64,000 nucleotides of DNA from Hyphomicrobium sp. (lineage in GTDB: Bacteria > Pseudomonadota > Alphaproteobacteria > Rhizobiales > Hyphomicrobiaceae): NCBI RefSeq assembly GCF_035572195.1, contig NZ_DATNBA010000133.1, forward strand, positions 7,021 through 71,020. The letters are read 5' to 3'. Both the position numbers and the translations under genes were made by a program. This document shows positions 2,945 to 58,162 of the stretch, in pieces; the first letter of the stretch is position 1; every line of letters begins with the position of its first letter. The notes below the pieces were generated by a model. It searched no databases. It worked only from the letters and a program-made list of their open reading frames with translations, and was not told where the DNA came from.

Positions 2945-3099
2945 ACCGCAATCGCTGTCGAGCGTTTGCTTTGGGTGCGAGCACGATTCTCCGCTCAACG
3001 GTGCCAAAGCTCTCCGCTTTGACTGTCGCCTGAATTCGGCTCCGCAGACCGTGGTTTCAATTGCGTCAGCCGCGCAATTGGCCGGCGGCAGAGCAACAC

Positions 3100-4722: not shown

Positions 4723-4738
4723 CAACAGGGCCTGGCAC

Positions 4739-5626: not shown

Positions 5627-5951
5627 TGCGGAAATTACGGCTGACAGCACATAGGCAAAACTCCCCTGCGTCGCAAGTTGGCGAAAGTGCCTTCTGACAG
5701 CGCCGATGTCGTTCTGCTGGCTGGTCCTTGAACAAAGTTTATCGTGCTCGTTCCATACGATCTGCAAGCTCCCGCGATGTCGGTTCCGCCGCGCCGATGA
5801 GGCCGCTCAGATCCACCACCGCAGCACATCTTTCGTTATTCATACATAATCGCATCCGTTGACGAGTTTCGCTTGTCGCGAGAAACTGTACCATTAGTGT
5901 ATTTCACGTCGTCTCCGTTTCGCCGGGGGCGGGCCCAAAAGTGATTTTATC

Positions 5952-6095
5952 ATGTTTTTCAAAGCCATTGCTTTGCTGATCGCCGCCATCGTCGGCTACT
6001 ACTTATTCGACACCGGCTCTGAACAAGGCGCCATTTTCCTTGCGCTGCCGGTTTCGGCAATCGCGGTCGTACTGCTGCTTGGGTGGTCAAGCTGA
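5952..6095 (+). CDS. Putative 47-aa two-helix membrane protein
   Basis: Below ORF-track cutoff. MFFKAIALLIAAIVGYYLFDTGSEQGAIFLALPVSAIAVVLLLGWSS; two hydrophobic stretches joined by a polar turn. Confidence 0.55.
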   Translation: MFFKAIALLIAAIVGYYLFDTGSEQGAIFLALPVSAIAVVLLLGWSS

Positions 6096-6335
6096 CGGTT
6101 CCGCCCGCTTTGGCCGTTTGGGCGGCCTAGGGCCGTTCCCGCGCTTGCGATTTGCGCATTGTTTTCGGAACCGCTCCCGCGTATGAAAGCGGCTCCCCAG
6201 CCTTGTGTGCCGGACGCCTCCTGATAATAGCAGGACGACTAGCGCCATTCGGTGCAGGAGTGAACGATTGCGCCGGATTTTGCCGGCCGATCGTGTTGAA
6301 GGTTAAGCGGCGGAAGGCAAAGACGGACTTCGGAC

Positions 6336-6420
6336 GCGGGCGTGGCGGAACTGGTAGACGCACTTGGTTTAGGTCCAAGCGGCGAAAGTCGTGGGGGTTC
6401 AAATCCCTCCGCCCGCACCA
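6336..6420 (+). tRNA. tRNA-Leu (TAG)
   Basis: Acceptor GCGGGCG/CGCCCGC, anticodon arm CTTGG-TTTAGGT-CCAAG, long variable arm, TTCAAAT loop, encoded CCA. Confidence 0.97.
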
Positions 6421-6528
6421 GTGCGCCTTTGGGGGCCGCCGGGATAGAAGATTTGTAGACAGACAGACGACTTCCCAGACTATTGGTCGATCGATGAGAC
6501 CAACGGGTCTCCAATCAGGAAACGGACG

Positions 6529-7887
6529 ATGCAGGTTACGGAAACGGCACGAGACGGATTGAAGCGCACCCTGCAAGTGGTCGTCGCGCAGGCTGAGTTG
6601 AGCGAGCGCTTCACAGAGCGTCTCGATGAACTCAAGGACCGGGTACAAATCAAAGGCTTCCGTCGCGGCAAGGTCCCGCTGACGCATCTGAAAAAGCTCT
6701 ACGGCAAATCGTTGATGCAGGAAGTGATGGAGCAGACGCTCAACGATACGAGCGCCAAGGTCATCAAGGATCGCAACGAACGTCCCGCGCAGCAGCCGAA
6801 AGTCGAGCTCGTCGAGGCTAACGAGGAAACATTCGAACGCATCGTCAATGGCGAGGCGGACCTCGCCTATAACATGTCGTTTGAGGTTTTGCCGCCGATT
6901 CCCGTCGCCGACCTCAAGACATTGAAGCTCGAGCGGCTCGTCGCCGACGTCGATGATGCGGCGATCGACAAGGCGCTGTCGGATCTTGCGGAGCGGAACA
7001 CGTCATTTGAACCCGAGGACGGCCGCGCCGCAGGCGAAGGCGATCTCGTGACCATGAACTTTGTCGGCCGCGTCGATGGAGAAACGTTCGAGGGCGGCTC
7101 GGGAGAGGGCGCCAGTCTCGTCATCGGCAAAAAGCAGTTCATACCGGGCTTCGAAGAAGGCGTAACGGGCCTGAAGGCAGGAGACAAAAAGGTCGTTACG
7201 GCGACCTTCCCGGACGACTATCCGATGAAGCAGCTGGCCGGCAAGACGGCCGATTTCGACGTCGAGGTAACGGCCGTCGCCAAACCGAAAAAGCCCGAAA
7301 TCGACGAAGATTTTGCCAAGGGCCTCGGCGCGGAAACCCTCGAAAAGCTTCGCGGCTTCGTTTCCGAGCAGATCAAGCGCGAGTACGACCAGGCGTCGCG
7401 CGCCAAGCTGAAGCGCGAGATTCTGGACGCGCTCGACGCCGAACACAAATTTGAGTTGCCGGCATCCCTTGTCGATTTCGAATTCAACAATATATGGACG
7501 CAACTCGAGAACAATCTCAAAGCCACGAACAAAAGCTTCGCCGACGAAGGCAAAACCGAGGATGAAGCGCGTGCCGAATATCGCGGCATCGCCGAGCGGC
7601 GGGTCCGGCTCGGGCTCGTGATCGGCGAGATCGGTGAGAAGAACAAGTTGCAGGTTTCACAGGAAGAAATGCGCCGCGCCCTCGTCGAGCAGGCCCGCCG
7701 CTATCCCGGCCACGAGAAGCAGGTTTACGAGTACTACGAAAAGACGCCGGGAGCGCTCACCGAGCTTCGCGCCCCGATTTTCGAAGACAAGGTCATCGAT
7801 CACGTGATTGCACAGGCAACTCCAACGGAAAAGAAAGTATCACGAGACGAACTCTTGAAAGCAGTGGAAGAAGCGACCGAGAGCTGA
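6529..7887 (+). CDS. tig: Trigger factor
   Basis: GFRRGKVP signature, FKBP domain (FIPGFEEG), conserved position after tRNA-Leu. Confidence 0.97.
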
Positions 7888-7999
7888 GCCGGCCGGGTTC
7901 TCAAGGCCATCCCGGCGGCGCAATCTCTGCGAGCTAGAATATGCGACTCTGACCGCCGGCCGAGACGGCCGTGCGGCTGAAACGAGGAAAGACGAAGCA

Positions 8000-8650
8000 A
8001 TGCGCGATCCTGTCAACACCGTGACGAACACGTTCTGGCCTATGGTGGTCGAACAGACGACGCGCGGCGAGCGCGGATACGACCTGCCGTCGCGCCTGCT
8101 GAAAGAGCGCATCATCTTCGTCACCGGTCCGGTCGAGGACCACATGGCGGCATCGATCTGCATGCAGCTTCTGTTTCTCGAGTCCGAGAACCCGAAGAAA
8201 GAAATTTCGATGTACATCAATACGCCGGGCGGTGTCGTCACGGCGGGCATGGCGATCTACGACACCATGCAGTTCGTGAAGCCTGCGGTTGCGACGTTGT
8301 GCATCGGTCAGGCGGCGTCGATGGGGTCGTTGCTTCTTTGCGCTGGTGAGAAGGGCATGCGCTACGCGCTGCCGAACGCCCGCGTCATGGTGCATCAGCC
8401 CTCGGGCGGTTTCTCCGGTCAGGCTTCCGATATCGAACGCCACGCCGAGGACATCATCAAGATGAAGCGGCGGCTCAACGAAGCGTACGTCAAGCACACC
8501 GGCCAGACCTACGAGATGATCGAGAAGACGCTCGATCGCGACTACTTCCTCACGGCGGAGCAGGCGTGTGACTTCGGACTCATCGATAAGGTTCTGCAAA
8601 GCCGGGATGAAACCGAAGCGGGCGTGTTCGATATCAAGGCGGCGACTTGA
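8000..8650 (+). CDS. clpP: ATP-dependent Clp protease proteolytic subunit
   Basis: YINTPGG, AASMG (catalytic Ser), [14 protein letters not shown]. Confidence 0.98.
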
Positions 8651-8985
8651 TAGGTGCAGCAGCAACGCAATTGTCGCACCGCGGCAGATTGCAACGCTGC
8701 GCCGCCGTCGATCAATAACGAGAACAAATGCCCAACACCCGCCGCCGCCGTTTGGTGAATTTTAAGCGTGAATTGCGGTGTTGCCTGCACGTCCGCCTGA
8801 CTGTGGCAATACCGCCGCTTGCGAGGTGCGGCCGGGTGCGTTCCATTAATCCAATGTTGATCTGCTGAACGGTAGCGTGCTGATGTTCGTTCGGAGTTTT
8901 CTAGTCGCCGAACGTTGGCAGTGAACAGCGGGCCAAAGCAAGAACATCGAAGAAGCGATGGATCTTGCATTGAAGGTGAGAAGAA

Positions 8986-31777: not shown

Positions 31778-32170
31778 CTAGGGGCGGTTTTGCAAGCCTG
31801 CTGCTACGGCGCGAAAATGCCTCATTAATTTCTTGCCGACATCCTTGTCCAAGCCGACGCGGTCAATGGCGATGGACATGCAATTCAACCAATCGTCGTG
31901 GGCCTTCCGGTCGATCTCTATATGCACGTGCATTTCCCGTACGTTCGTGTGGCCGTGTTTTTCGGCATACAATTTCGGACCACCGAGAAAGTCGGACAAG
32001 AAAGCGAATTGCTCGATCCTCGAATGGGCAACACCCATTCCTCTGAGATGCAGCATTTTGAGATCCGTGCCCTCGGGCTCGAACTCGATGACGTCATAAA
32101 AAGTCTCGACTAGGTTTCGAAGACCAGTTTCACCTCCAACAAGTGCATAGAGCGACGTATTCCCAGACAT
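31778..32170 (-). CDS. Group II truncated hemoglobin
   Basis: LY..VGG, FY (B10 Tyr), FLGGPKLY, REMH (proximal His), DW (G8 Trp). Confidence 0.9.
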   Translation of the reverse strand: MSGNTSLYALVGGETGLRNLVETFYDVIEFEPEGTDLKMLHLRGMGVAHSRIEQFAFLSDFLGGPKLYAEKHGHTNVREMHVHIEIDRKAHDDWLNCMSIAIDRVGLDKDVGKKLMRHFRAVAAGLQNRP

Positions 32171-32173
32171 TTC

Positions 32174-33628
32174 TCATTTTCCTCCTGGCGCATGATTGGG
32201 CTTGCGGCGGTCGCGGCTGACAAGGTCAGTGCGAAACGCGCACGCCCGGGGCACGTGATCGCGGCTGGAGATGACCACGATCGGCACGCTTCGGCCCGGA
32301 TGGGTCGAGCCTTCCGTCTCGCAATCGACGCGAACACTTCCCAAATGCGACGGTAGTGCCGTGTTGCTCCATTCGCCCGCGATAAAACTGTCGAAGTCGT
32401 GGCCGTTCTCGATGCCGCCCGCCATAGCAACGAGTTCGTCTACCGTCCGCCCCGCGGCGGCTTTGTAGACGCCGGGCGAGATGACGCGGCCGGCGATCGA
32501 ATACAACATCGGAGCGCCGTCGACGTCGCCATCCTGGCCGCAAAAACTGTCGATCCCCATGGACAGAATTTCAGGGATCCAACGCAACAATTCGGGCCGA
32601 ACGAGAAGGACCGAGGCAGGCGTTAGCGACGCCGCTTCACATCTTTGCGTTTCGCCCGCCCTTCTTTGTAGCGAGCTGCGGCACAAACTTTGGAGGAGGT
32701 GAACGTCATCGCTGTGGGTGTCCGGTGAAAATTCCGAAAAGGTGAAGCTGACATGGCGATCGAAACCGTAGGCGCTGAGTACCGTCAATTCTCGTTCGAG
32801 GCTGCACCGCAATGACGAGTACCGGTTGTTGCAATGAACAAGGATCTCCGGCGCACCAATGATCAAAGCCGTTATCAGCAGGCCCTCGAGCACCGAATGT
32901 GTATGGCGCTCGATAAGGTAAGTTTGGCTCATGACGCCCGGCGGCGCGTCGTCAACGAGCAGCAGAAGCTTGGCGACATCCCCCGTGTCGCGGAGCTCCC
33001 GCATCCGAATACCGATCGAAAGCTTCTCGCCTTCAAACGAGGCCAACGGCAATGCAGACAGCGCAGAAACGATGCTCTCGATGGAACGTCGCTTGGCGAG
33101 GCAACTCTTGAGAACGCCGTATCCGCCCGCATTCGTGTACGAGGAAAAGGTTTCTTGGCTCGAATCGGCGGCCTGTCCATCGCTATCGGCGTTCACCGTT
33201 CCGCCGTCGATGGCACCCGATATGACATCGTCGCCGATCGCCGCGACAGGCGCCATCCAGCAGCGGGCCATGCACGTTTCGCGAATGACGCGATGTCCCG
33301 ATCTTGCTGAAGTGATCTCATCACAAAATGCTTCGGCGCCGGCGAGAGCGCAGGGAAGCCCGACACACACCCTGATCGGAGCAGGATTTCGTTTGTCGGC
33401 GACGTTGTCCCGATCATCCATTGAGCCGCTTTTTACGGCCGCGCAGGGTTCTTCATCGTCGGCATCGATTAATGCGGATATTTCATAGCCCGGTATGTAA
33501 CCGCGCCAGCTCTGAATACTGCGCAACCATTCCGGTAGATTGTGGCACGACCTAAAGTTCAAACGCTGAGAAGCAGAAGGCACACCTTCATCATTCATCA
33601 CTAGCGAAAGGTCGGGTATGCTCACCAC
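32174..33628 (-). CDS. Degenerate NuoE-NuoF fusion (formate dehydrogenase beta-subunit-like)
   Basis: CVGLPC...CMARC [2Fe-2S] ligands, AGGY, LEGLLI, YSIAGRV..PGV SLBB region; FMN/NADH loops and the [4Fe-4S] domain are missing. GTG start with GGAG RBS. Confidence 0.75.
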   Translation of the reverse strand: MVSIPDLSLVMNDEGVPSASQRLNFRSCHNLPEWLRSIQSWRGYIPGYEISALIDADDEEPCAAVKSGSMDDRDNVADKRNPAPIRVCVGLPCALAGAEAFCDEITSARSGHRVIRETCMARCWMAPVAAIGDDVISGAIDGGTVNADSDGQAADSSQETFSSYTNAGGYGVLKSCLAKRRSIESIVSALSALPLASFEGEKLSIGIRMRELRDTGDVAKLLLLVDDAPPGVMSQTYLIERHTHSVLEGLLITALIIGAPEILVHCNNRYSSLRCSLERELTVLSAYGFDRHVSFTFSEFSPDTHSDDVHLLQSLCRSSLQRRAGETQRCEAASLTPASVLLVRPELLRWIPEILSMGIDSFCGQDGDVDGAPMLYSIAGRVISPGVYKAAAGRTVDELVAMAGGIENGHDFDSFIAGEWSNTALPSHLGSVRVDCETEGSTHPGRSVPIVVISSRDHVPRACAFRTDLVSRDRRKPNHAPGGK

Positions 33629-33702
33629 GTCTGCTCCACTTCCATTCCTTCCTCTCGTGAATACCTTTCATCGCCGTTCGACAATTGCGAGCAAGGTCAC
33701 TC

Positions 33703-33736
33703 AAGAGAAAAGAGGCTGGGAGCATTGCCCCCAGCC
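33703..33736 (-). terminator. Rho-independent terminator after dmmD
   Basis: Minus strand GGCTGGGGGC-AAT-GCTCCCAGCC (one G-U pair) followed by TCTTTTCTCTT. Confidence 0.7.
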
Positions 33737-33755: not shown

Positions 33756-34874
33756 TCACGTGCGCTCGGAAAGTGGATGCGTCTTTAGTCGCATCGGATC
33801 GTAAAACGGCATCTGGACTACAGTCGCTTTGAGGTCGCCGCCGTCATGAATGATGAGTTCGGTGCCGAGACGCGTCAAATCCGGATGAACCTGCGCCATC
33901 GCCAACGACTTCATCAGATGCCGGCTGAAGGTCGTGCTGGTAACGACCCCTACTTCTTTGCCGCCCGAAGTTATCTTCGACAGCGGAGTGACGGCGTCCG
34001 GATGGGCGACCTCGAGGCCGACAATGACCGACCGCTCTTTGCCCTTCTTATTGATTAACGCTTGCTTGCCGATGAAATCCGGTTTGGAAAGATCGACCGT
34101 CCAGTCGGCACGAACTTCCCAGGGCGTCGTATCTCCGTGCGTCATGTCAAACGGGAAGAACAGGAGGCCGCCTTCGACACGGACGATGTCGAGGCAGGAC
34201 CACGATACGGGCATCACGCCCTTGTCCTTTCCGGCGGCAAGAATGGAATCCCAGATGTGGTGCGCATCCGTGGCCGAGCAAAACACTTCGTAGCCACGCT
34301 CAGCCGAGTATCCACCGCGGGCGATCGATACCGGCTTTCCAAAAAGAGTTGTCTTTTCATGATGGAAATAGCCAAGAGAAGCCAGGTTCATAGGCGTGTG
34401 AGGCGCCAGCGTCTCCAGTGCCAAAGGTCCCTGCAGTGAAAGAATGTGAACGTTGTTATCGCGCTCGATCTCGACCTTGAAGCGCGATTTCGCGGCGTTG
34501 GCTGCTTCTTCGAAAATGCCGCCGCCATGCGACACGCGGTATTGGTTCGGACCGTCGACGTAGACCAGCACATCATCGATCAGCGCGCCGTCGGCGTTGA
34601 CGATATTGCTGATGTGAGAGTCGCCTGGCTTGGCCTTGGAAACATCGGTCGTGAGAAGATGATTCAGGAAAGCCTGGGCATCAGGCCCGCTGACCTTCAC
34701 GATTTTCAGTCCCGATACGTCGATCAGGCCGGCACGATATCGAACCGCTGCCGTTTCCTCATAAGGGCACGTCGAATAGTTCTGAGGCACGGGCATGTCA
34801 TTCCATGAGGATGACAGATCCGATCCCAATTTCCGATGGCGATCATTTAGCACCGATTGGCGTGAGGTAGACAT
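33756..34874 (-). CDS. dmmD: GcvT-like aminomethyltransferase, tetrahydrofolate-binding subunit of dimethylamine monooxygenase
   Basis: GLIDVSGL, GALIDD, LSLQGP, RGGYSAERGYE, RVEGG, FYDP; position in the dmm operon. Confidence 0.82.
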   Translation of the reverse strand: MSTSRQSVLNDRHRKLGSDLSSSWNDMPVPQNYSTCPYEETAAVRYRAGLIDVSGLKIVKVSGPDAQAFLNHLLTTDVSKAKPGDSHISNIVNADGALIDDVLVYVDGPNQYRVSHGGGIFEEAANAAKSRFKVEIERDNNVHILSLQGPLALETLAPHTPMNLASLGYFHHEKTTLFGKPVSIARGGYSAERGYEVFCSATDAHHIWDSILAAGKDKGVMPVSWSCLDIVRVEGGLLFFPFDMTHGDTTPWEVRADWTVDLSKPDFIGKQALINKKGKERSVIVGLEVAHPDAVTPLSKITSGGKEVGVVTSTTFSRHLMKSLAMAQVHPDLTRLGTELIIHDGGDLKATVVQMPFYDPMRLKTHPLSERT

Positions 34875-34936
34875 GAGCGTTTCCTTTTTCTCGTTTGCGA
34901 CGCGCTCTATCGAAAGGCGAGCGCGCCGTTGTGTTA

Positions 34937-35977
34937 TTATTTGTGCAGGAAGCCCGAAGGTGTGGGCTTGCCGTCATCGTATTTCTCGAGCCATTGCAGG
35001 GTCACGTCTCGGTACCGGGTGATCCCTTTGTAGTCGATGAGCTCTGGCGGGATCGACTTGAGCACTCGCGGGAGACGGCGAGCCCAGTCCGGCTGCGTAA
35101 CGAGTTCACGCATTTTTATAAGATAGGCGCGGATTGAAAAAAGCACCGCGTTGGATCGCGGGAGCCGCCACAACGCCTGCAGCTCGACACGCAAATGCAC
35201 TTTATCGCCGACGTTTTCCTCGGTGACGGAGGAACGGTCGATACCCCATTTGTCGTAATTTTCGGGGCTCGTATCCAGCCGCGGATTGATCGTCATCGTC
35301 CAGTTCAGGCGGCGCACCGGTTTTCCTTGCTGAAGATTGAGCAGATACTTCAGCGCGCGCTCGAAAACGCCGGCCTGATGCGCCAGCGGCACGGGGCCAT
35401 GCCATTCCATGAAATTCATGCCGACATCGAAATCGAGCGACCAATCCGCCTGCGAAGTCGCGATACCGGCATCCATCCAGAGATTGTTCTCTCTCTGATC
35501 CAGAATGGTGAAGTCGCCCTGGCACTGCCGCGTAATGTATTCCATAGGCTCGTACGGCAACGTCGACACCTCGCCGAACGTGAAGCTCTGTTCGATACCG
35601 AGAGGACGATTGATCCAATGCCACTGATTGCCATCCTGCTGCAGCGTGAAATGCTGAGGATAGTCTCGCGCCAGCGACGTCATGATCAGTTCGAGGACGT
35701 CCCACTGCGCCGTCATCATATGAGGCAGCGCTTGAACGCGACGCGGATCTGCCTTTAGGACCAGAGCCCGATCGCGCATGTCCGAGACATAGTGCTCATC
35801 TATGTCGAACGGAAATTCGTAGACCGAGCCTTTCTGTCCCGCCGTATGCGGTTCGATATTGACCGAATACATGTACTTGTCTTCCCAGAACGGGAAGGGA
35901 AACCGCTCCACTGCCGAAGGGCTGTTGGCGTACGTAAAGTCGTCGCGAAATGTTTCGTCTTTGAAGAATGTATTCAT
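34937..35977 (-). CDS. dmmC: Heme-dependent oxidative N-demethylase alpha subunit (DUF3445)
   Basis: FPFPF.EDKY.YSVN, QGDF, WHGPVP, RRLNWT, LRVELQ.L.RLPRSNA.LFSIR; AAGGAG RBS before ATG 35977. Confidence 0.87.
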   Translation of the reverse strand: MNTFFKDETFRDDFTYANSPSAVERFPFPFWEDKYMYSVNIEPHTAGQKGSVYEFPFDIDEHYVSDMRDRALVLKADPRRVQALPHMMTAQWDVLELIMTSLARDYPQHFTLQQDGNQWHWINRPLGIEQSFTFGEVSTLPYEPMEYITRQCQGDFTILDQRENNLWMDAGIATSQADWSLDFDVGMNFMEWHGPVPLAHQAGVFERALKYLLNLQQGKPVRRLNWTMTINPRLDTSPENYDKWGIDRSSVTEENVGDKVHLRVELQALWRLPRSNAVLFSIRAYLIKMRELVTQPDWARRLPRVLKSIPPELIDYKGITRYRDVTLQWLEKYDDGKPTPSGFLHK

Positions 35978-36011
35978 GAAGGCACTCCTTCCGTTCAATT
36001 GAGATTGAGGA

Positions 36012-36977
36012 TCAAAGATCCAAGGTGAGGCATCCGCCATCCATGCGCGATACGCATGTTGCGATCCTGTCTCCCTCCTTCTTCTCTTCATCCGTGAGAT
36101 AGTGATCGTTGTGATGCACGGCGCCGCCCTCGGTGTTCGTGATGCGCGTAATGCACTGTCCACAGGCGCCCCCGCGACAGAGGTAGGGCGCATCGACACC
36201 AGCCTGCTCGAGAGCTTCGAGAATGCTCTGATGTTCGCCGACGTGTATCTCTTTCCCGGATGTTGCGAGCTTGACGACAAACGGGTTTCCCGGCGTCGGC
36301 ACGCTGAAGTGCTCGGAATGGACGTTTTCATCCGGCCAGCCTTCCAGCTTCGCCGTCTCCAATGCCCAATCGATCATTCGTTGCGGACCACACACGTAGA
36401 CGTGCGTTCCGAGCCTTTGATTTTGTAGAATTGCGTTGAGCGCGATCCGCTCGCCCCGATCCGACCGGTAGAGACGGACCCCAGGCAATCCTTCTGCTTC
36501 CAGTGCTTTGAAATATGCCCCGTCTTCAGGCGACCTCACCGCATAGTGCAATTCAAAGTGCGACTTGTCGTTCCTGAATTGCGCCAGCATGGCCATGAAT
36601 GGCGTGATGCCGATGCCGCCCGCTATCAAGATGTGTTTGCGCGCGGTGTGGGCGATCGGAAAAAGATTAAGCGGATCGCTTATCTCCAGCACCTCTCCCA
36701 CTTCGACATTTTCATGCATATGGACGGAACCGCCGCGCGATTCCGCAACCCGAAGCACGCTTATAGAGTAGCGCCTGGGGTCCAAAGGCGAACTCATAAG
36801 CGAATAAGGGTTGCGGTAAACAGCGTCGCCTTTGCGCATCGTAACGATCACATGAGCTCCGGCCGAGAAGCAGGGCAAAGCCGCGTCGTCGATTGGCGCA
36901 AAATGAAATCGTTTGATCTGACTGGCGACGCGCTCGATGCTTTCAACACGCACGAGGCGCTGATTCCTCATGGTCAT
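36012..36977 (-). CDS. dmmB: PDR/VanB-type reductase (FMN plus 2Fe-2S)
   Basis: RNPYSL, GGS, AGGIGITPF, YVCGP, EHF, CRGGACGQC...C; ATGA overlap with dmmA. Confidence 0.88.
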   Translation of the reverse strand: MTMRNQRLVRVESIERVASQIKRFHFAPIDDAALPCFSAGAHVIVTMRKGDAVYRNPYSLMSSPLDPRRYSISVLRVAESRGGSVHMHENVEVGEVLEISDPLNLFPIAHTARKHILIAGGIGITPFMAMLAQFRNDKSHFELHYAVRSPEDGAYFKALEAEGLPGVRLYRSDRGERIALNAILQNQRLGTHVYVCGPQRMIDWALETAKLEGWPDENVHSEHFSVPTPGNPFVVKLATSGKEIHVGEHQSILEALEQAGVDAPYLCRGGACGQCITRITNTEGGAVHHNDHYLTDEEKKEGDRIATCVSRMDGGCLTLDL

Positions 36978-37579
36978 TGGAATTCTGCCTTCGTTTCTGG
37001 AATTTCTCCTGGAGCTTCTGCGTCGATGCGAACCCCCTGGAATGCTGCATACCGGCGCGAATAATGGTCCCGGACGATAAGAGTTAACCCGCAGTGGGCG
37101 CATTTCACCGGATTGGTCGTGACGTCTTCGGTCAGTCCCTTGCAGTGGACGCATTGCACGCGCCGCTTCAACGATCCTCTGTGCTCGGTGAAGACCGAAT
37201 TGTGCGCGATCCCATGCTCGAGCGCCGTTCGAATGACGGAACCGATCAGCGGTTCGCTGCCGGTCGCATAAAGTCTCGTGCTCATCAGCGCCGTGTTCAG
37301 CGCGGCGTTGAGGCGCGAAGTGGCGGTCTCGATCGTCGGAAACGACCAGATATTGGCAAATCCCAACGGATTGAGAACGTCCTGCGGGTCTTTGCCGTTG
37401 CCGCCCGTCCTGCAGAGCAAAATGGTGGTTCGCGCCGGAAAGCCCTCGTCGGCGAGCTTCATCATATCGAGGACGGCTTCACAGCCGGCGGCGTCGGTCA
37501 CGACGATATTCTGTTTTGCAAACAGGTCCGGTCGCAGTCCTCGATAGACCGGTCTGCTTTTGATTCCCGCTACAAGCAT
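36974..37579 (-). CDS. dmmA: Dimethylamine monooxygenase subunit DmmA family
   Basis: GIKSRPVY N-terminus; C-terminal RVQCVHCK...CAHCG...VRDHYSRR. Confidence 0.83.
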   Translation of the reverse strand: MLVAGIKSRPVYRGLRPDLFAKQNIVVTDAAGCEAVLDMMKLADEGFPARTTILLCRTGGNGKDPQDVLNPLGFANIWSFPTIETATSRLNAALNTALMSTRLYATGSEPLIGSVIRTALEHGIAHNSVFTEHRGSLKRRVQCVHCKGLTEDVTTNPVKCAHCGLTLIVRDHYSRRYAAFQGVRIDAEAPGEIPETKAEFQ

Positions 37580-37783
37580 AGCTCAGTGCTTCTCCGCTCT
37601 TGGCAATGTGAAAGGCCGCCCTTCCGCATTTGCGGTCATGGAGGCAAATTCACTTAAAGTTGGGTCAGGGCGAATAGGGAGGCTTCTTCCGCCCTGACCG
37701 TTTCACCGCAACAATCCGCTCAGAATGGCCTTACTGAGAACGAAGGACTGCTGCGATGAACGCTTCACGTCACAGCTTCGGCT

Positions 37784-39565
37784 TCATGCCGGAAGCGCGA
37801 AAAACCAGTTCGCAACGAGAACCACGACAATACCGGCAGCAAGTGTGAGATAGGGAAGGATGCCGGCCTTGCGCTGTTGCAGATCGTTAGCCGTCAGGTT
37901 CAAATCCTCAAGCATGTGGGCGGGAAACTTGCCCTTGTCCTGGACGTAGTGCCGGAACAGAAACACCGGGATGATGAGGGACGCAGCGATCGCGCCGGCC
38001 CACAACGCCATCGGGTTCCAGACCTTGGCTCCAGCACCCATGAAGGCGGCGTTGACGAACGCAAACATGGTGCCCAAGACCAACAGAATGGTAGGCGCTC
38101 GCCACGGTCTCTGGATGTGCCCATTGTCGATACGATGGATCCAGCCGGAGTTCAGGTTGAGGAAGTTGAAGATGATGTAGCAGCAGTTGGAAACCGCCAG
38201 AATGAAGAAGAAGCTGGTAGCGTCCGCGGCTGCGATCGCGAGAAGGCCCAGGTTGAATACCAGGTCCGTCCACATTGCTCTCGTCGGAGCGCCGTGCTCG
38301 TTCGCATGATCAAGATACCGAGGCAGCCAGCCGTCGACGGAACCCTGATAAAGCGTGCGAGACGATCCGGCCATCGCCGTCATGATCGACAGCATCAATG
38401 CCAGGATCATCAACATCACCATGATGTTGACCACAAAGCCCGAACCGCCGACCATCGTAGCCATCGCATTTGCGACGCCGGAGCCATCGACGATAGGCGT
38501 TGCCAGCATGCCGTTGAGGCCGAGGACGCCTTGGAACGTGAATGGCACCAAGGTGTAAAGCAACACGCACAAAAGGCCCGAGAAGAAGATGGCTTTGAAC
38601 GTGTCGGTCTTCGGATTCTTGAACTCGCTTGTGTAGCAAATGGCGGTTTCGAAAGCGTAGGTCGACCACGCCGCGATAAACATTCCGCCGAGAACCAGCG
38701 TCCAGCCGCCGACGTTCCACTCTCCCATCTCAGGAGCGTATGCGGCCTTCAGCGGAACCAACGGCGAATAGTTATCCCAATTGATCTGTCCAGTGAGGAT
38801 GGGAACCACACCGACGATCAACATCGGTATGATGACCAGCAGTCCGATATATTTCTGTACGCTGGCCGTGCCGAGGATGCCGCGATGCTGGATGGCGAAC
38901 GTGATCAGCATGAGCACCGCGCCGATAAAGAACACCCAATTCAGAGAGAAGGTGACCGGGCCGAGCGAATGCGTGAATAGAGTCCAATTGCGGAACGCCG
39001 GAGTCAGAGCTGCAACTCCGTCCTGAGCCAACAACGCGCTGACGCCTTCCGTTGCCGTATGGCCGGCGTTCGCCGCAAGCCATTCAGCAATGCGCGGACT
39101 ATCGAGCGGGATCGCACTCGCATGAGCTTGCACCCACGCCAATACATCCGGAGAGTCGGCCGCAGGAATCGGGCCGAGTGCATTTAAGATGTAAGCAGCG
39201 GCAATCGAACACCCGAGAGACAAGACCGGGGACCAGGCCAGCCAGTTGCACCACACCGATAGTGGCGCAATCAATTTGGAGTAACGCACCCAAGCAGCCG
39301 CGCCATAGATTGAAGCGCCGCCCGATTTATTTGGAAAGAGGCCTGCTATCTCGGCATAGGTGAAAGATTGGATGAAGCCCATGACCATGGACACCGCCCA
39401 AACAAGAAAGGCTACCTTTCCCGTCGTACCGGCAATGCCGCCGATTGAAAACAAAACGAGGGCCGGCACACCGCTGGCCACCCAAAAAGCACCCTTCCAG
39501 TCAATTGATCGCACTAATTCGCCGGACGATGATCGTCCCGACAATATTTGTGTTTCGACCGCCAT
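37784..39565 (-). CDS. APC-family permease, TmoP-like (methylated amine or amine oxide uptake)
   Basis: IDWKGAFWVASGVPALVLFSIG, EIAGLFPNKSGGAS, AFETAICYTSEF; immediately upstream of dmmA as tmoP is in Methylocella. Orthology not verified. Confidence 0.78.
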   Translation of the reverse strand: MAVETQILSGRSSSGELVRSIDWKGAFWVASGVPALVLFSIGGIAGTTGKVAFLVWAVSMVMGFIQSFTYAEIAGLFPNKSGGASIYGAAAWVRYSKLIAPLSVWCNWLAWSPVLSLGCSIAAAYILNALGPIPAADSPDVLAWVQAHASAIPLDSPRIAEWLAANAGHTATEGVSALLAQDGVAALTPAFRNWTLFTHSLGPVTFSLNWVFFIGAVLMLITFAIQHRGILGTASVQKYIGLLVIIPMLIVGVVPILTGQINWDNYSPLVPLKAAYAPEMGEWNVGGWTLVLGGMFIAAWSTYAFETAICYTSEFKNPKTDTFKAIFFSGLLCVLLYTLVPFTFQGVLGLNGMLATPIVDGSGVANAMATMVGGSGFVVNIMVMLMILALMLSIMTAMAGSSRTLYQGSVDGWLPRYLDHANEHGAPTRAMWTDLVFNLGLLAIAAADATSFFFILAVSNCCYIIFNFLNLNSGWIHRIDNGHIQRPWRAPTILLVLGTMFAFVNAAFMGAGAKVWNPMALWAGAIAASLIIPVFLFRHYVQDKGKFPAHMLEDLNLTANDLQQRKAGILPYLTLAAGIVVVLVANWFFALPA

Positions 39566-40071: not shown

Positions 40072-40722
40072 TTGTCCTGCACATTGGCGGCATTTGCAGC
40101 CGAGCGTGAAAGGGAATTGGCGCGATCGGTTGGACTTTGGCGCCAATCCGCCGATTTCGTTTTGTCTTTCGCAGATAGCGATCCGAGGCGCGCCGCCGCC
40201 TATAGCAATGCAGGATTCGGTTGTTTGCTCGCAGGAGAACACCGCGAGGCCGAAAACTTTTTGCAAAATGCGGCCGCCCACTGGCGTCTTGCCGAGAGAC
40301 GCGTCGAGGTCGCCGAAGTCCCGCTTGCCGGAGCCGGAACGGCCTTTCATTTGTCGTTGGCGTCGCGACATGGGGAAACACTCACGCGCATTCGGCGCGA
40401 TAAGTACATCGGCATATGCAGGGGTGCCGCCGCCATTACGAACGCCGTGGCTCGACGTTTAGTACAGAGCCATAACATTTCGGAATTAAATGGCGCTGAC
40501 GTTCAAGAGGATATCACTGCACTGGAATCTGCTTTTGGTATCGACTGCGCCGAAGCACTGCTGCTGAAGCACGAGTCCTCCGAAAGCAACGCCACGCTGC
40601 CCTCGGACGAGCTGCGTTTCCTGCACGATCGCTGGCCCGCGGTAGCTCGCCAGACGCGGTCCGAGATGCGTCCCTTTGTTGATGCCGCCTATCTGACAGC
40701 GGGTTTGCATCGGACCGATTAG
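40072..40722 (+). CDS. Helical TPR-like hypothetical protein; start uncertain
   Basis: 216-aa Ala-rich helical ORF (DPRRAAAYSNAG...EAENFLQNAAAHW); frame is open upstream to 39976 without an ATG. Confidence 0.65.
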   Translation: MSCTLAAFAAERERELARSVGLWRQSADFVLSFADSDPRRAAAYSNAGFGCLLAGEHREAENFLQNAAAHWRLAERRVEVAEVPLAGAGTAFHLSLASRHGETLTRIRRDKYIGICRGAAAITNAVARRLVQSHNISELNGADVQEDITALESAFGIDCAEALLLKHESSESNATLPSDELRFLHDRWPAVARQTRSEMRPFVDAAYLTAGLHRTD

Positions 40723-40797
40723 TAGAAGTGGGAGCACGTCGCGCAAGCCGGCTAGCTTCCTGAATATATTGCTACTCACTGAGAACGAGACACCTGA

Positions 40798-41583
40798 ATG
40801 AATAACTTGATCACCCCTGTAGCTCCTTGGAATAGCGACAACGCAAATCAGCCGTTCGTCAAAGAAAAGGTCAAGGCTGCCGCTCACCAGATATTCATGC
40901 AAATTGCAACGGGCCGGTACTCGTTTGGGGCGCGCCTCGATGCAGAACGAAATCTGGCGGACGAGTTAGGCATCACGCGTACAACGATCCGGCAGGCTTT
41001 CGATTTTCTCGAGCACTATGATGTCGTGAAGCGGCGGCCGAACAGCGGGACCTTCGTGGTCTACCGTAGTCCTCGGCCCGGCTCGGAAGCTTCCGCAGGC
41101 GAGAATTCCGCCGATGTGTCGTCAGCCGATGCTCTGGACGTCAAGGCGATCGTGGAAACGGCGTCGCCATTTGAGATGAGCGTCGTGTGCTCGCTCATCG
41201 AGCCCGAAATGGCCAGACTCGCTACGCTCTACATGTCCGTCCGCGATCTCGTAAATTTGCGGAAGCTGCTGGAAGAAATCGATGTGATCGTCACCGATGC
41301 CGAACAGTTCGCCCATCTCGAAAAGCGGTTTTTGATGCAAGTCGCCGAAGGCACGCACAATCGGCTGCTGATCACCATGTATCGGATCATCTGCGAGGTT
41401 CGCAAACAGCCGCATTGGTGCGCCACGCGAATCCAGACGCTCTCGCCCGTACGCATTCGCGAAAGCCAAAAGAAATTGCGGTCGATTTACGAAGCTCTCG
41501 AAAGCCGGGATATTGAAGCGGCCGTCGAGTTCATGAAGCTTCTCGTCGCGAGCAATCAGGAAGATCTGATGTACCCGCTTTAG
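40798..41583 (+). CDS. GntR/FadR (FCD) transcriptional regulator
   Basis: L..ER.LADELGITRTTIRQA...L...VV.RRPNSGTFV wHTH; FCD-like C-terminus (IEPEMARLA, GTHNRLL). Confidence 0.88.
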   Translation: MNNLITPVAPWNSDNANQPFVKEKVKAAAHQIFMQIATGRYSFGARLDAERNLADELGITRTTIRQAFDFLEHYDVVKRRPNSGTFVVYRSPRPGSEASAGENSADVSSADALDVKAIVETASPFEMSVVCSLIEPEMARLATLYMSVRDLVNLRKLLEEIDVIVTDAEQFAHLEKRFLMQVAEGTHNRLLITMYRIICEVRKQPHWCATRIQTLSPVRIRESQKKLRSIYEALESRDIEAAVEFMKLLVASNQEDLMYPL

Positions 41584-41600
41584 GCGAGGAGCATCACCCG

Positions 41601-42881
41601 TCAGCGCCTTTCGACGAGCTTGGTTTGGCGCTGATCCCACATCAAATGCATTTCGCGCATATGCTTCAAGAGTAGGTCGCTGTGGGCCGCCCACCAGTCG
41701 AGGATTGATCCGAATTCAACGATCCGCGCCCGGCCATTCTGAATTGTGACGACCGGCCAGTAGCCGACCAAGGCGTTGTCGATTCCAAAAAGCTCGCGGC
41801 CCCACCAGGCTGCTTCTCCAAATACATGTTTTCCCGTGCCGCCGACTTTCATCATCGCCAAGACCGTTGACGGTTCAAACGTGCGCGCCCGCTCGACCGC
41901 GGTCTTCCAGAGTTCCAGTGTCGAAACATACTCCCAGGACACCGCACTCCAGGCGCCGGGATATCGCGAGCAGAATTCTTCGTAGAATGCGTTGGGATTC
42001 TCGAAATTGATCTGCGGCTCGTTCAGTCTCGGGTCATCGAAGTCGGGAAATTGGAATACGAACCCCTCCATGAAATCCATGCTCGTTTTGTCGATCAAGT
42101 CCACATAGTTGTCGCAAGTACAGGACAACAAACGTCCTTTGAAACCCAACCGGTAAGCCTCGATTGTGAGCGCATGGACGAACGGCTCGTAGGCCGTGTC
42201 CCAGCACAAAATGTCGGGCTGATGCGCCATCAGATCTCGAACGATGCCGGAGAACTCCGTGGTCTCGATGGGAAACAGCCGCTCCGCGACGACTTCAATT
42301 CCGGCAGCTTCGAAGGCCGCCCGGTATGTTGCTATGGAGGGGAGGCCGTGGGCGTCGTCTTGGGTGCACATCGCCACGGTTCTGAGCGTCGGCTCGTCAC
42401 GCTTCAGCCAATCAACTCCCGTTACGTTGTAAATTGGATGGACCTCGGACGGCGCGATCAACGTCCGCGCGTCCGGCGACAGATCGCTGGGTAGTAGTGT
42501 CGTAACGAGCGTCTTCTGTTGATTGACGAAATCGCGCACTTGTTCCGAAAAATCGTTGCCGCCGACCATGACCAACAACTTGGCGCCGTCCTCGAGGATC
42601 AGCTTTCGGGCGCCTTCCAACGCTTTTCCCGGCTTGAATTCGGTATCGAACGGAATGATGTCGATCAGGAACTGCCGGTCACGAACTTGTATGCCGCCTT
42701 GGGCATTGACCCTCTCTTTCCAGATCAAGCACCCGTGATACCCGGGCTCGGCCCAAGACTTCAGTTTTCCGGAGAGCGGAGCCAGGAAGCCGACCGTAAC
42801 ATCTTTCTTTGTCTCGATTCTCAATCGTGGCAGTGCCAGCGAAAGCGCCGACCCTAGCGAACTGCTTGACCGTAGAGCCAT
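41601..42881 (-). CDS. Type 1 (LivJ/AmiC-like) solute-binding protein without evident export signal
   Basis: VGFLAPLSG...VNAQGGI...DTEF..A...ARKLI..D PBP1 N-terminus; no adjacent ABC permease or ATPase. Confidence 0.8.
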   Translation of the reverse strand: MALRSSSSLGSALSLALPRLRIETKKDVTVGFLAPLSGKLKSWAEPGYHGCLIWKERVNAQGGIQVRDRQFLIDIIPFDTEFKPGKALEGARKLILEDGAKLLVMVGGNDFSEQVRDFVNQQKTLVTTLLPSDLSPDARTLIAPSEVHPIYNVTGVDWLKRDEPTLRTVAMCTQDDAHGLPSIATYRAAFEAAGIEVVAERLFPIETTEFSGIVRDLMAHQPDILCWDTAYEPFVHALTIEAYRLGFKGRLLSCTCDNYVDLIDKTSMDFMEGFVFQFPDFDDPRLNEPQINFENPNAFYEEFCSRYPGAWSAVSWEYVSTLELWKTAVERARTFEPSTVLAMMKVGGTGKHVFGEAAWWGRELFGIDNALVGYWPVVTIQNGRARIVEFGSILDWWAAHSDLLLKHMREMHLMWDQRQTKLVERR

Positions 42882-56873: not shown

Positions 56874-58160
56874 ATGCTGCACGATCGCGATCGCATCTTC
56901 CGTAATATCTACGGATTCCATGACGTGAGCCTCAAGGGCGCGCGGCAGCGCGGCGCATGGGATGGCACGAAGTTTTTCATCGACAAGGGCCACGACTACA
57001 TCATCGACGAGGTCAAGAAATCGGGATTGCGGGGCCGTGGCGGCGCCGGGTTTCCGACGGGTCTCAAGTGGTCGTTCATGCCGAAGGCCGATTCTCGGCC
57101 GAGCTATGTCGTCATCAATGCCGATGAATCGGAGCCCGGTTCCTGCAAGGATCGAGAAATTCTACGCCACGATCCGCATCTGCTCATCGAAGGAGCGCTG
57201 CTCGCGTCCTTCGCGATGCGGGCGCATACAAGCTATGTCTACGTGCGCGGCGAATACATCCGCGAGCGCCAGGCGCTGCAACGCGCCATCGACGAAGCGT
57301 ATGATGCAAAGCTCATCGGCAAGGACAACATCCACGGCTGGGATTTTGATCTCGTCGTGCATCACGGCGCCGGCGCCTACATCTGCGGCGAAGAAACCGC
57401 GATGCTCGAAAGCCTTGAAGGCAAGAAGGGCCAGCCGCGTCTGAAGCCGCCGTTTCCGGCGAACGTCGGTCTCTACGGTGCACCGACGACGGTCAATAAC
57501 GTCGAAAGCATTGCGGTGGCCGGTGATATTCTGCGCCGCGGCTCGAGCTGGTTCGCGGCTCTCGGTCTTCCGAACAACACCGGCACGAAGCTGTTTCAGA
57601 TTTCCGGCCACGTCGAGCGTCCGTGCGTCGTCGAAGAGGAAATGGGTATTCCTCTGAAAGACCTGATCGACAAGCACTGCGGCGGTATTCGCGGCGGCTG
57701 GGACAACCTGCTCGCCGTCATTCCCGGCGGCTCGTCTGTTCGTTGCATCACGGCGGAACAGGCGATGGACGTCACGATGGATTTCGACGCGCTGGGCAAG
57801 CTCGGTTCGGGCCTCGGCACCGCAGCCGTTATAGTCATGGATAAATCGACCGACATCATCGGCGCGATCCGCCGCATCGCCTATTTCTACAAGCACGAGA
57901 GCTGCGGCCAGTGCACGCCGTGCCGTGAAGGCACCGGCTGGATGTGGCGCGTGCTCGAACGGATGGAACGTGGCGAGGCCGAAAAACGCGAGATCGATTT
58001 GTTGCTCGACGTGACGAAACAGGTCGAAGGTCACACGATCTGCGCTCTCGGCGACGCGGCGGCGTGGCCGGTGCAGGGCTTGATCAAGAACTTCCGTCCG
58101 GTCATCGAAGCGCGCATCGATCAGTATCAAGCAAAGCACACGCGCGAGGCGGCAGAGTAG
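56874..58160 (+). CDS. nuoF: NADH-quinone oxidoreductase subunit F
   Basis: [43 protein letters not shown]...C. Confidence 0.98.
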
Positions 58161-58162
58161 AC

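Follow-up and report, generated by a model that had tools for sequence, protein, structure and literature searches.

A remodelled paralogue of the formate dehydrogenase beta subunit, predicted to hold a [2Fe-2S] cluster, beside a truncated haemoglobin gene in Hyphomicrobium

FDH1 of Methylorubrum extorquens AM1 is a tungsten-dependent NAD-formate dehydrogenase. Its beta subunit, Fdh1B or MeFDH1-beta (7e5z, 7vw6, 8j83, 7xqw), joins a NuoE-like part, a NuoF-like part and an SLBB region in one chain, with four [2Fe-2S] cysteines in a thioredoxin-fold domain and a Rossmann-type NuoF-like domain. This subunit carries FMN, an on-path [4Fe-4S] cluster (B1) and an off-path [2Fe-2S] cluster (B2) (PMC10869683). 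The same fold family includes NuoE/NuoF (Nqo2/Nqo1) of complex I and FdsG/FdsB of the Cupriavidus/Rhodobacter-type formate dehydrogenases, in which two separate polypeptides bind FMN, NADH and [4Fe-4S]. Two further described systems are the group II (O-type) truncated haemoglobins and the DMA monooxygenase, the latter encoded by the dmmDABC cluster (Lidbury et al. 2017, ISME J, as cited in PMC13199381). Relatives of all three lie side by side in a 64,000-nt stretch of DNA from Hyphomicrobium sp., referred to here as the window.

The stretch 31778-33628 consists of two minus-strand ORFs. The first, at 32174-33628 (-), encodes a 484-aa NuoE/NuoF-like fusion, here called X; the second encodes a globin. 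The X ORF opens with GTG, and direct reading of the sequence places a Shine-Dalgarno motif, GGAG (33634-33637, minus strand), 5 nt 5' of it. An alternative ATG at codon 11 would give a protein of 474 aa, and one database entry starts X later, at 415 aa, a choice that loses the conserved N-terminal helix LPEWLRSIQSWRGY. The NuoE-like domain, at about 33209-33538 (-), holds the codons for four [2Fe-2S] cysteines (33260-33367, minus strand; C88, C93, C119 and C123, spaced C-x4-C-x25-C-x3-C). These cysteines (CVGLPC...CMARC in X) recur without exception in the 19 family members compared, and the distant members P0031 and P0032 have them too. The former FMN/NADH-binding, Complex1_51K-like domain was placed by column profile at 32594-33151 (-), and an SLBB-like beta-grasp region lies at 32264-32521 (-), where the AF2 model has strands (residues 374-453). 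Pfam scores for X are below threshold for 2Fe-2S_thioredx (PF01257; 19.2 bits, cut-off 24.8), Complex1_51K (PF01512; 21.2 bits, cut-off 31.2) and SLBB (24.2 bits, cut-off 27), and the NCBIfam nuoF model (TIGR01959) gives 60.5 bits with a cut-off of 558.65. The Pfam search returned no match to PF10589 in X. The original prediction of an uninterrupted 484-aa ORF with a good ribosome-binding site, all four NuoE-type cysteines and a retained SLBB region thus describes X well, with the SLBB assignment scoring under its Pfam cut-off. X is predicted, from the invariant cysteines only, to bind a [2Fe-2S] cluster.

Where does X come from? The best PDB match of the X family profile is the MeFDH1-beta chain 7e5z_B (E 8e-51, residues 49-489 of 572), and solved NuoE chains are matched at ~1e-10. 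An AF2 model of X (pLDDT 72, pTM 0.73) likewise finds MeFDH1-beta at the top of a Foldseek search (7vw6_B and 7e5z_B; E 1e-21), followed by HydB, NfnB and NuoF. The proposed resemblance to fused formate dehydrogenase beta subunits is therefore borne out by both sequence and fold, and X is a paralogue of the Fdh1B-type beta subunit (fused NuoE-NuoF), truncated and with remodelled cofactor sites. It shares with Fdh1B the single-chain order of domains and the four cysteines in a thioredoxin-fold domain next to a Rossmann-type NuoF-like domain. Unlike Fdh1B, it ends ~80 residues sooner, lacks the [4Fe-4S] domain, has its FMN loop, NADH-site loop and PPFP loop replaced or deleted, sits on a long separate branch and has no adjoining alpha subunit gene. 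Compared with NuoE/NuoF and FdsG/FdsB, X is fused and lacks their FMN, NADH and [4Fe-4S] sites. Canonical sets are also present in this genome, namely nuoF at 56874-58160 and fdsG-fdsB-fdsA on contig C95, where fdsA adjoins the canonical fdsB. As had been supposed, no alpha subunit gene lies near X: the only FDH-alpha-like matches in the window are weak and fall inside a 770-aa ORF (57944-60256) that is directly 3' of nuoF and is presumably nuoG.

Which cofactor sites have been lost? The window's true NuoF, aligned with X, served as the motif reference, and family columns were profiled over 19 members. The Gly-rich FMN loop of NuoF is replaced by PLASFEGEKLSIG in X; the sequence at the loop reads SFEGEKLSIG, the first Gly of the GG pair is Glu in every member (19/19), and a conserved FE...P.G.R motif stands where the loop was. 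NADESEPG of NuoF corresponds to VDDAPPG in X, with D226 and P230 of this DE..PG segment nearly invariant in the family, and the GEE position still has an acidic residue. X has no counterpart of the NADH-site loop of NuoF, and throughout the 19 members the columns of the NADH-site loops, PPFP among them, vary or are deleted. GGSS of NuoF has become G-[DE]-W-S, 3' of the SLBB-like region, and the C-terminal [4Fe-4S] domain (ESCGxCxPC...C) is absent, since X and all its homologues terminate before it. Each motif loss that had been noted against the true NuoF was reproduced in this alignment, as was the end of the chain upstream of ESCGQCTPC. With the NADH loops, the FMN loop and the [4Fe-4S] domain gone, X would no longer be a diaphorase or a formate dehydrogenase subunit. 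At the same time, the columns of the old FMN site are occupied by a Glu, an Arg, a Gly and a Trp that are each found in 19 of 19 members, and E199, R208 and W420 are invariant residues peculiar to the old pocket of X. These new invariant residues suggest that the cofactor sites have been remodelled, not decayed.

Such a pocket could belong to an active oxidoreductase of unspecified specificity, with a flavin, a nucleotide or some other cofactor still in place. A pocket with its own invariant E199, R208 and W420 is not what random decay would leave, the near-invariance of D226 and P230 and the acidic residue at the GEE position fit this reading, and flavin-related genes adjoin X in two loci from relatives, ribBA in L007 and an NADPH-dependent FMN reductase gene in L066. 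However, the loss of the Gly-rich loop, the deleted or variable NADH-site loops and the sub-threshold Complex1_51K score make retained activity of this kind improbable.

The X family comprises ~25 homologues at 35-60% identity, all with identical losses. In the tree it is monophyletic with full support (100/100) on a long stem. It is also rare, with 4 Hyphomicrobium-labelled genomes among ~185,000 species, ~8 representatives among 1.84 billion proteins and none in 550 sampled relatives; the family is confined to a few Hyphomicrobium-like lineages. A search of the literature on DMA monooxygenase, truncated haemoglobin partners and NuoF pseudoenzymes found no description of it. Pairs of X genes give dN/dS values of 0.14, 0.115, 0.10 and 0.08 (dS 0.4-1.9). 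Within one genome pair, the value for X is 5-8 times that for dmmD or the permease gene, and X is 41% identical where dmmD and the permease are 78-88% identical. This faster evolution fits a non-catalytic role, yet it makes that role hard to pin down. Outpacing all its neighbours, having lost its catalytic motifs and not being found in the other genomes sampled, X could be taken for a non-functional relic of a duplicated formate dehydrogenase beta gene. That explanation is disfavoured to the point of being very hard to credit, given a dN/dS of ~0.1, an intact ORF in every copy (including three near-identical metagenome copies with 3-7 nt differences), cysteines and new motifs that stay invariant across 35-60% identity, and a conserved X-globin gene order. 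The homologues with the same losses and the low dN/dS agree with the view that X was repurposed, and X is a conserved but rare protein of Hyphomicrobium-type methylotrophs, apparently functional, and not a decaying gene.

The gene downstream of X (31778-32170, minus strand) encodes a 130-aa group II truncated haemoglobin. It matches Pfam Bac_globin (PF01152) at 1e-21, with 77.8 bits against a cut-off of 21, and is the sole Bac_globin match in a genome-wide search. Its best PDB matches (2bkm, 1ux8, 2xyk and 1ngk) are all group II proteins, and it resembles B. subtilis YjbI, the G. stearothermophilus truncated haemoglobin, A. tumefaciens HbO and M. tuberculosis HbO at E values of 1e-9 to 4e-16. 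The Phe-Tyr of its TFYD and the Trp of its DDWL align to the same residues in the G. stearothermophilus and B. subtilis proteins; we take these to be the B9-B10 and G8 sites, and EMHVH is presumably the proximal-His region. Unlike these other group II proteins, the globin is encoded straight after DMA monooxygenase genes, an association of which no description was found in the literature. At the junction (32168-32186, minus strand), AGGAGG lies in the last codons of X and is followed by TGA, GAA and ATG, giving the 3-nt gap that the original prediction had reported. The two genes share a reading frame, such that reading the TGA as Trp would yield a 616-aa fusion. In a second, non-sister lineage (L010, L012, L055, L062 and L063) coupling recurs as a 4-nt ATGA overlap. 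This architecture predicts that X and the globin are co-translated.

Upstream lies the permease-dmmABCD cluster (33756-39565, minus strand; identified by Pfam), with the same synteny in the five loci just named. It comprises an APC permease gene (37784-39565), dmmA (36974-37579; PF22290/PF22289), dmmB (within 36012-37154; PF22290, Fer2 and NAD_binding_1), dmmC (within 34937-36331; PF11927, HODM_asu) and dmmD (33756-34874; PF01571/PF08669, GCV_T), all on the minus strand. The window shares DmmA, DmmB, DmmC and DmmD with the described dmmDABC cluster, each of them identified here by its Pfam domains, and the X-globin pair does follow DMA monooxygenase genes. The terminator proposed between dmmD and the pair is also present, as an intrinsic-terminator-like hairpin and T tract at 33704-33736 (-). 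The hairpin, at 33736-33714 (-), has 10 pairs, 8 of them G-C, and continues into the tail TCTTTTCTCT. Its position is conserved in all related dmm loci (L010, L012, L055, L011, L057 and L058), and in L011 the arms differ in sequence but still pair. The hairpin parts X from dmmD, an observation that counts against an accessory role. We know of no described dmm cluster with an X-like gene or a globin gene.

Does X serve the globin? The original prediction made X an electron shuttle or a sensor for the globin. Taken as a redox model, this makes X the globin's dedicated partner, either a shuttle or a reductase adaptor, and the pair would supply the DMA monooxygenase with O2 or clear NO from it. 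Co-translation is favoured by the gap of 3 nt together with the strong Shine-Dalgarno sequence inside X, the gene order with its ATGA overlap recurs in the non-sister lineage and, to our knowledge, the cognate reductases of group II truncated haemoglobins are largely unknown. The tight coupling in two lineages therefore stands. The exclusive partnership fares less well. The arrangement permease-dmmABCD-hairpin-globin, with no X between, is found in three genomes of our sample (G152, G153 and G062): Hyphomicrobium sp. GJ21, a further Hyphomicrobium MAG and, as G062, a genome from the window's genus. Most X lineages have no adjoining globin gene. In addition, no flavin site can be recognised in X, and without one the protein could not take electrons directly from NAD(P)H. 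A dedicated partnership with the globin is thus unlikely, although it is the alternative to which we give most weight. Because dmmABCD-globin occurs without X and X without the globin, the globin would be a dmm accessory in its own right.

The genomic settings of X across relatives point to a broader association. X comes after dmmABCD in the window, as in six further loci (the five with the ATGA overlap, and L011). It follows mgsABC-gmaS in L009, lies within an N-methylglutamate-pathway cluster in L007 and adjoins ETF and Usp genes in L001. A TMADH-like gene lies ~2-8 kb from X in L011, L013-15 and L056. One whole subclade adjoins catalase, MFS and LysR genes and not amine genes directly. The contexts are mostly those of methylated-amine catabolism, their common denominator, with dmm, the N-methylglutamate pathway, and TMADH-like or ETF genes. 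A TMADH-specific role for X was considered and rejected, since the genome that holds the window lacks a TMADH-like gene; the link is thus to amine catabolism in general and to no single enzyme. Where dmmABCD-globin lacks X, the picture varies: GJ21 and the Hyphomicrobium MAG carry X elsewhere in the genome, and X was not found in the genome from the window's genus. Among 150 sampled genomes of the family, dmmC is present in 20, and in contrast to the window none of these 20 has X. This distribution suggests that Dmm does not need X, a separate and optional module that travels with methylated-amine genes rather than specifically with the globin.

It is also conceivable that X delivers no net electrons at all and instead acts as a sensor of redox state, O2 or NO, its exposed or labile [2Fe-2S] cluster modulating a partner. 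The cluster that X retains is the off-path one of the parent enzyme, and genes for Usp proteins, a catalase, LysR regulators and an ECF sigma factor lie near X. Hyphomicrobium is also reported, in work by Meiberg and Harder, to switch between O2-dependent and O2-independent amine oxidation. However, Pfam and NCBIfam find no DNA-binding or signalling output domain in X, and no partner is conserved across its contexts. The FNR-type box TTGA-N6-TCAA has no match in the window; the GJ21-type loci alone showed FNR/FixK-type boxes, in front of the globin gene. A sensor therefore seems unlikely, and slightly less probable than the dedicated globin partner.

The reading we prefer, and to which we give about an even chance, is that X assists amine oxidation as an optional accessory redox protein with a [2Fe-2S] cluster. 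X would descend from a fused NuoE-NuoF (Fdh1B-type) beta subunit of NAD-dependent formate dehydrogenase. It would have kept the thioredoxin-like domain and the [2Fe-2S] cysteines, that is, the off-path cluster of the parent, while giving up both the NADH-binding loops and the C-terminal [4Fe-4S] domain through which beta and alpha subunits are wired together, and exchanging the FMN loop for different conserved residues. At this locus, X would have been inserted between the terminator behind dmmD and the dmm-accessory globin gene. The product may be a small one-electron [2Fe-2S] redox module. It would serve the haem and Fe-S enzymes that oxidise amines, as a carrier or as an adaptor of redox state, and would receive its electrons from a separate flavoprotein. 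The globin may be among its partners where the two genes adjoin. A bolder and more doubtful version, a long shot, is that X supplies single electrons that hold the haem of the group II globin, and perhaps the haem of DmmC as well, in the ferrous state, and so is the cognate partner that had been missing. Hyphomicrobium would thereby gain a unit for NO scavenging or O2 buffering that shields the haem-dependent DMA monooxygenase when cells grow by denitrification under micro-oxic conditions; X, once a diaphorase, would now be a flavin-free [2Fe-2S] adaptor, with the old FMN pocket (E199, R208, W420) as a docking or relay site.

What are the implications? The X family is small and limited to a few Hyphomicrobium-like lineages, and so its general impact is moderate. 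Within that range, X appears to be a NuoEF/FDH diaphorase unit that has been cut down to its off-path [2Fe-2S] cluster and is under purifying selection. With its flavin pocket rebuilt, it would be a clean natural case of a pseudo-diaphorase and a concrete candidate for asking what an off-path, N1a-type cluster does alone. Its repeated position next to genes of methylated-amine oxidation, and at this locus its predicted co-translation with the globin, likewise make X a candidate for one of the proteins on which group II truncated haemoglobins and the haem-dependent DMA monooxygenase rely as O2 and NO levels change.

X, the fused NuoE/NuoF-like ORF, and a group II truncated haemoglobin (trHb; here, the globin) are the two minus-strand ORFs of the range 31778-33628. 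X (32174-33628, minus strand; 484 aa) runs uninterrupted from a GTG start with GGAG 5 nt upstream, and the 130-aa globin ORF follows at 31778-32170 on the same strand. The 3' end of X reads ...CCA GGA GGA AAA TGA, then GAA ATG, with ATG the globin start; the gap is 3 nt, and AGGAGG lies within the last X codons. The open frame with its ribosome-binding site and the close spacing are both as originally predicted. The two genes share a reading frame (TGA GAA ATG; 32168-32176), and read-through of this one TGA would yield a 616-aa X-globin fusion. In five related loci (L010, L012, L055, L062 and L063), the end of X and the start of the globin share 4 nt; because this L010-type junction is an out-of-frame ATGA overlap, the frame match in the window is probably incidental. 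An alternative X start is the ATG at codon 11. A 415-aa version in one public record would drop the N-terminal helix LPEWLRSIQSWRGY, which is conserved family-wide and aligns with the start of NuoE-like domains.

What has X lost, and what has it kept? All of its Pfam matches fall below cut-off: 2Fe-2S_thioredx at residues 83-137 (19.2 bits; cut-off 24.8), Complex1_51K at 226-285 (21.2 bits; cut-off 31.2) and SLBB at 377-413 (24.2 bits; cut-off 27). For the NCBIfam nuoF model, the score is 60 bits (cut-off 558). Alignment with the window's true NuoF (56874-58160; Complex1_51K 160 bits) and a full-length fused relative reproduced each predicted loss or replacement: a 13-residue NuoF motif has become PLASFEGEKLSIG, NADESEPG has become VDDAPPG, a 10-residue NuoF loop and the PPFP loop have no counterpart, and X stops short of ESCGQCTPC. 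The four cysteines said to be retained are present (C88, C93, C119 and C123; C-x4-C-x25-C-x3-C). Cofactor-contact motif columns were then profiled one by one across 19 family members. The first Gly of GGAG is Glu and the Lys after PTG is Arg in 19/19, the Gly of PTG is likewise kept in 19/19, GGSS has become G-(D/E)-W-S with Trp in 19/19, and the stretch from the 10-residue loop to PPFP is variable or deleted. By this profile, a new conserved constellation occupies the FMN-proximal site and the NADH site is gone; judged from these columns, the pocket appears to have been rebuilt rather than eroded. Here, Glu, Arg and Trp may do no more than occupy the former pocket, or they may make up a docking or ligand site that is new. 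Such a constellation could also belong to an enzyme that is still active through a non-canonical cofactor site; with the NADH site gone, we regard this as quite unlikely.

X is a real gene, with specific losses and replacements shared family-wide. A search of 5.8 billion proteins returned ~25 homologues (386-464 aa, 35-60% identity), all with the same losses. Invariant across the family are the four cysteines and a set of family-specific motifs: RVCxGLxC; RETCxxxCWxxP; GGYxV...SC..(K/R)RR(S/T); HxVLEGLLI; WxPE; PGxY; AGG; (S/G)FxxGxW(S/D/N); and FPIxxxS..D...R...F. On a maximum-likelihood tree, the family forms one clade (100/100 support) with a stem of ~2.3 substitutions per site to canonical fused relatives. 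Nei-Gojobori dN/dS for X, from pairs with dS between 0.4 and 1.9, is 0.14 (L010/L012), 0.115 (L013/L015), 0.10 (L014/L015) and 0.08 (L013/L014). For L010/L012, it is 0.018 for dmmD, 0.029 for the permease, 0.048 for the globin and 0.092 for dmmA, placing X under purifying selection that is looser than on neighboring genes. From the window to L010/L012, X keeps 41% identity; the permease keeps 88%, dmmD 78% and the globin 61%. The window's locus recurs at >99% identity on three metagenome contigs, with the X ORF intact. Looser selection might suggest a relic; the shared losses and dN/dS of 0.08-0.14 make this highly improbable, in line with the claim that X is not a decaying pseudogene.

X derives from an Fdh1B-type subunit. 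The X-family profile finds 7e5z_B, the beta subunit of the tungsten-dependent FDH1 of Methylorubrum extorquens, at E 8e-51 (residues 49-489 of 572), with NuoF, HydB and FdsB far behind (1e-23 and weaker). Foldseek with an AlphaFold2 model of X (pLDDT 72, pTM 0.73) likewise places MeFDH1-beta first (E 1e-21), ahead of the B subunits of bifurcating hydrogenase and Nfn and of NuoF. Both searches bear out the fused formate dehydrogenase (FDH) beta architecture originally proposed. MeFDH1-beta carries FMN, an on-path [4Fe-4S] cluster (B1) and an off-pathway [2Fe-2S] cluster (B2) (PMC10869683), whereas X retains the ligands of the off-pathway cluster only. X is a derivative of the NuoEF/FDH-beta module without flavin or [4Fe-4S], a clean pseudo-diaphorase. 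The window's genome has a canonical fdsG-fdsB-fdsA cluster with LysR, all cofactor motifs intact (contig C95:4000-12079; L070, L050), as well as a normal nuoF, so X is an extra paralogue and not the organism's FDH subunit. The window's only FDH-alpha-like matches are weak and lie within a 770-aa ORF just downstream of nuoF (57944-60256), presumably nuoG, consistent with the reported lack of an alpha subunit near X. Fused 570-600-aa Fdh1B-type genes are frequent in the window's family (E 1e-60 to 1e-72) and were not found in the sampled genomes of its genus.

The X family is rare and restricted to a narrow lineage. A pattern scan covering ~185,000 species, with one genome each, found four true members, all labelled Hyphomicrobium sp., and four canonical 570-aa relatives. 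Among 150 family and 400 order genomes sampled, none had a member beyond the window's own genome, and the ~240-bit matches there are ordinary 570-600-aa beta subunits; X is absent from 5/5 sampled genomes of the window's genus. When 1.84 billion representatives at 50% identity were searched exhaustively with HMMER, about eight full-length members were listed, along with two other ~400-aa truncated forms, P0033 and P0041. The latter, relatives of fused FDH beta subunits, keep most of the FMN loop (GG.G.PTG, EPG.FKD) without the 4Fe-4S domain or PPFP loop; since they group with canonical proteins on the tree, theirs appears to be a separate truncation. Automatic public names for X homologues include "SLBB domain-containing protein", "ligand-binding protein", "formate dehydrogenase (beta subunit)" and "NADH:ubiquinone oxidoreductase subunit E/F"; nothing on the family was found in the literature searched.

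Methylated-amine catabolism is the theme common to the contexts of X, and the link is recurrent. In the window and the five loci with the 4-nt overlap, the order is permease-dmmA-B-C-D-X-globin. L011 has permease-dmmABC-D-D'-X and no globin, together with a response regulator and, nearby, a TMADH-like gene. X follows mgsABC-gmaS in L009, and in L007 it sits in a cluster for the N-methylglutamate pathway, with ribBA, a permease and Usp after it. Other arrangements are ETF-TetR-Usp-X (L001-4) and ECF sigma, catalase, MFS, X and LysR (L005, L013-15, L056 and L064), the latter with a PBP-GntR-TMADH-like block 7-8 kb downstream. In L066, X lies between a class-I GATase with a 115-aa ORF and a 117-aa ORF with an NADPH-FMN reductase. 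On the X tree, dmm-linked members fall in three separate lineages and globin-linked members in two non-sister lineages. The window itself is such an amine island: mgs/gmaS and dmm lie in it, as do mgd-like genes and a Fae-like gene. Since the window's genome has no TMADH-like gene and dmmC occurs without X in 20/150 sampled relatives, the link is not to one enzyme.

Class-I glutamine amidotransferase and flavin-related genes flank X in two loci (L066 70-3749; L007 6905-10539); the NADPH-dependent FMN reductase of L066 and the RibBA of L007 possibly hint at an external flavin or electron source. A Peripla_BP_6 and GntR/FCD regulator pair precedes permease-dmm in L010 (1-1690) and the TMADH-like gene in L056 (16254-18405), and a matching PBP and FadR-like pair lies upstream of dmm in the window (40072-42881). 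Recurring as it does, the pair looks to be an amine-responsive control module. In 34937-37154, dmmC and dmmB have longest ORFs of 464 aa and 380 aa that run into their upstream neighbors by ~320 and ~180 nt, respectively; because homologous loci have 346-aa and 306-320-aa genes, the true starts are probably internal.

The globin (Bac_globin, 77.8 bits) is the sole Bac_globin gene in the window's genome, and its closest solved relatives are group II trHbs from G. stearothermophilus, B. subtilis, A. tumefaciens, T. fusca and M. tuberculosis (HbO). A terminator had been predicted between dmmD and the X-globin pair, and a hairpin of 10 pairs with a T-rich tail is present there (33736-33714, to 33704 with the tail; minus strand). 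Its position is kept in all related loci (L010 ~7880-7915; L011 ~6945-6975; L057 ~8245-8275); the L011 arms differ yet still pair (GGCCGGGAAC...GTTCCCGGTC), and GJ21-type loci without X have it too. X and the globin therefore probably form their own unit or depend on read-through. Three genomes have the globin after permease-dmmA-B-C-D without an intervening X: Hyphomicrobium sp. GJ21 (G152; L057, G152:C1:608000-619000, 2522-8848), another Hyphomicrobium MAG (G153; L058, G153:C42, 1-4668) and a genome from the window's own genus that is 99% complete (G062:C4:2308637-2311176). The hairpin between dmmD and the globin was read in sequence for the first two, where X is on another contig; no X was found in G062. 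Thus, the globin is a dmm accessory in its own right, with X a separate module lying, in some genomes, between the dmmD terminator and the globin. This lineage seems to conserve a dmmABCD-trHb unit; no paper describing one was found in the literature searched. The X-less globin is preceded by an FNR/FixK-like palindrome (TTGACGGCCGTCAA in GJ21, ATGATCTGAGTCAA in the other MAG), and an inverted repeat, ATATCG-N5-CGATAT, is conserved just ahead of the ribosome-binding site (L057 ~8330-8345 and ~8420-8445; L058 ~4145-4160 and ~4245-4265). The window has no TTGA-N6-TCAA box.

What might X do? The original prediction was sound in what it observed and holds only in part in how it read this, as a shuttle or sensor for the globin. 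X is tightly coupled to the globin where both meet, by the 3-nt gap or 4-nt overlap, but is independent of it elsewhere, and dmm-globin units exist without X; a globin-specific role is rather unlikely. Going by its ligands, X would bind a [2Fe-2S] cluster, and with no flavin and no on-path [4Fe-4S] cluster it presumably cannot be a diaphorase or an FDH subunit. Instead, X may serve the haem and Fe-S enzymes of amine oxidation as a small one-electron redox module (a carrier, or else an adaptor or sensor of redox state) that would be reduced by a separate flavoprotein. Taken together, this proposal has about an even chance of being right. A pure sensor role would also fit the retained cluster but is considered unlikely. 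The role proposed for X is a prediction, and this pseudo-diaphorase can be tested for a connection with the biology of truncated haemoglobin and DMA monooxygenase.
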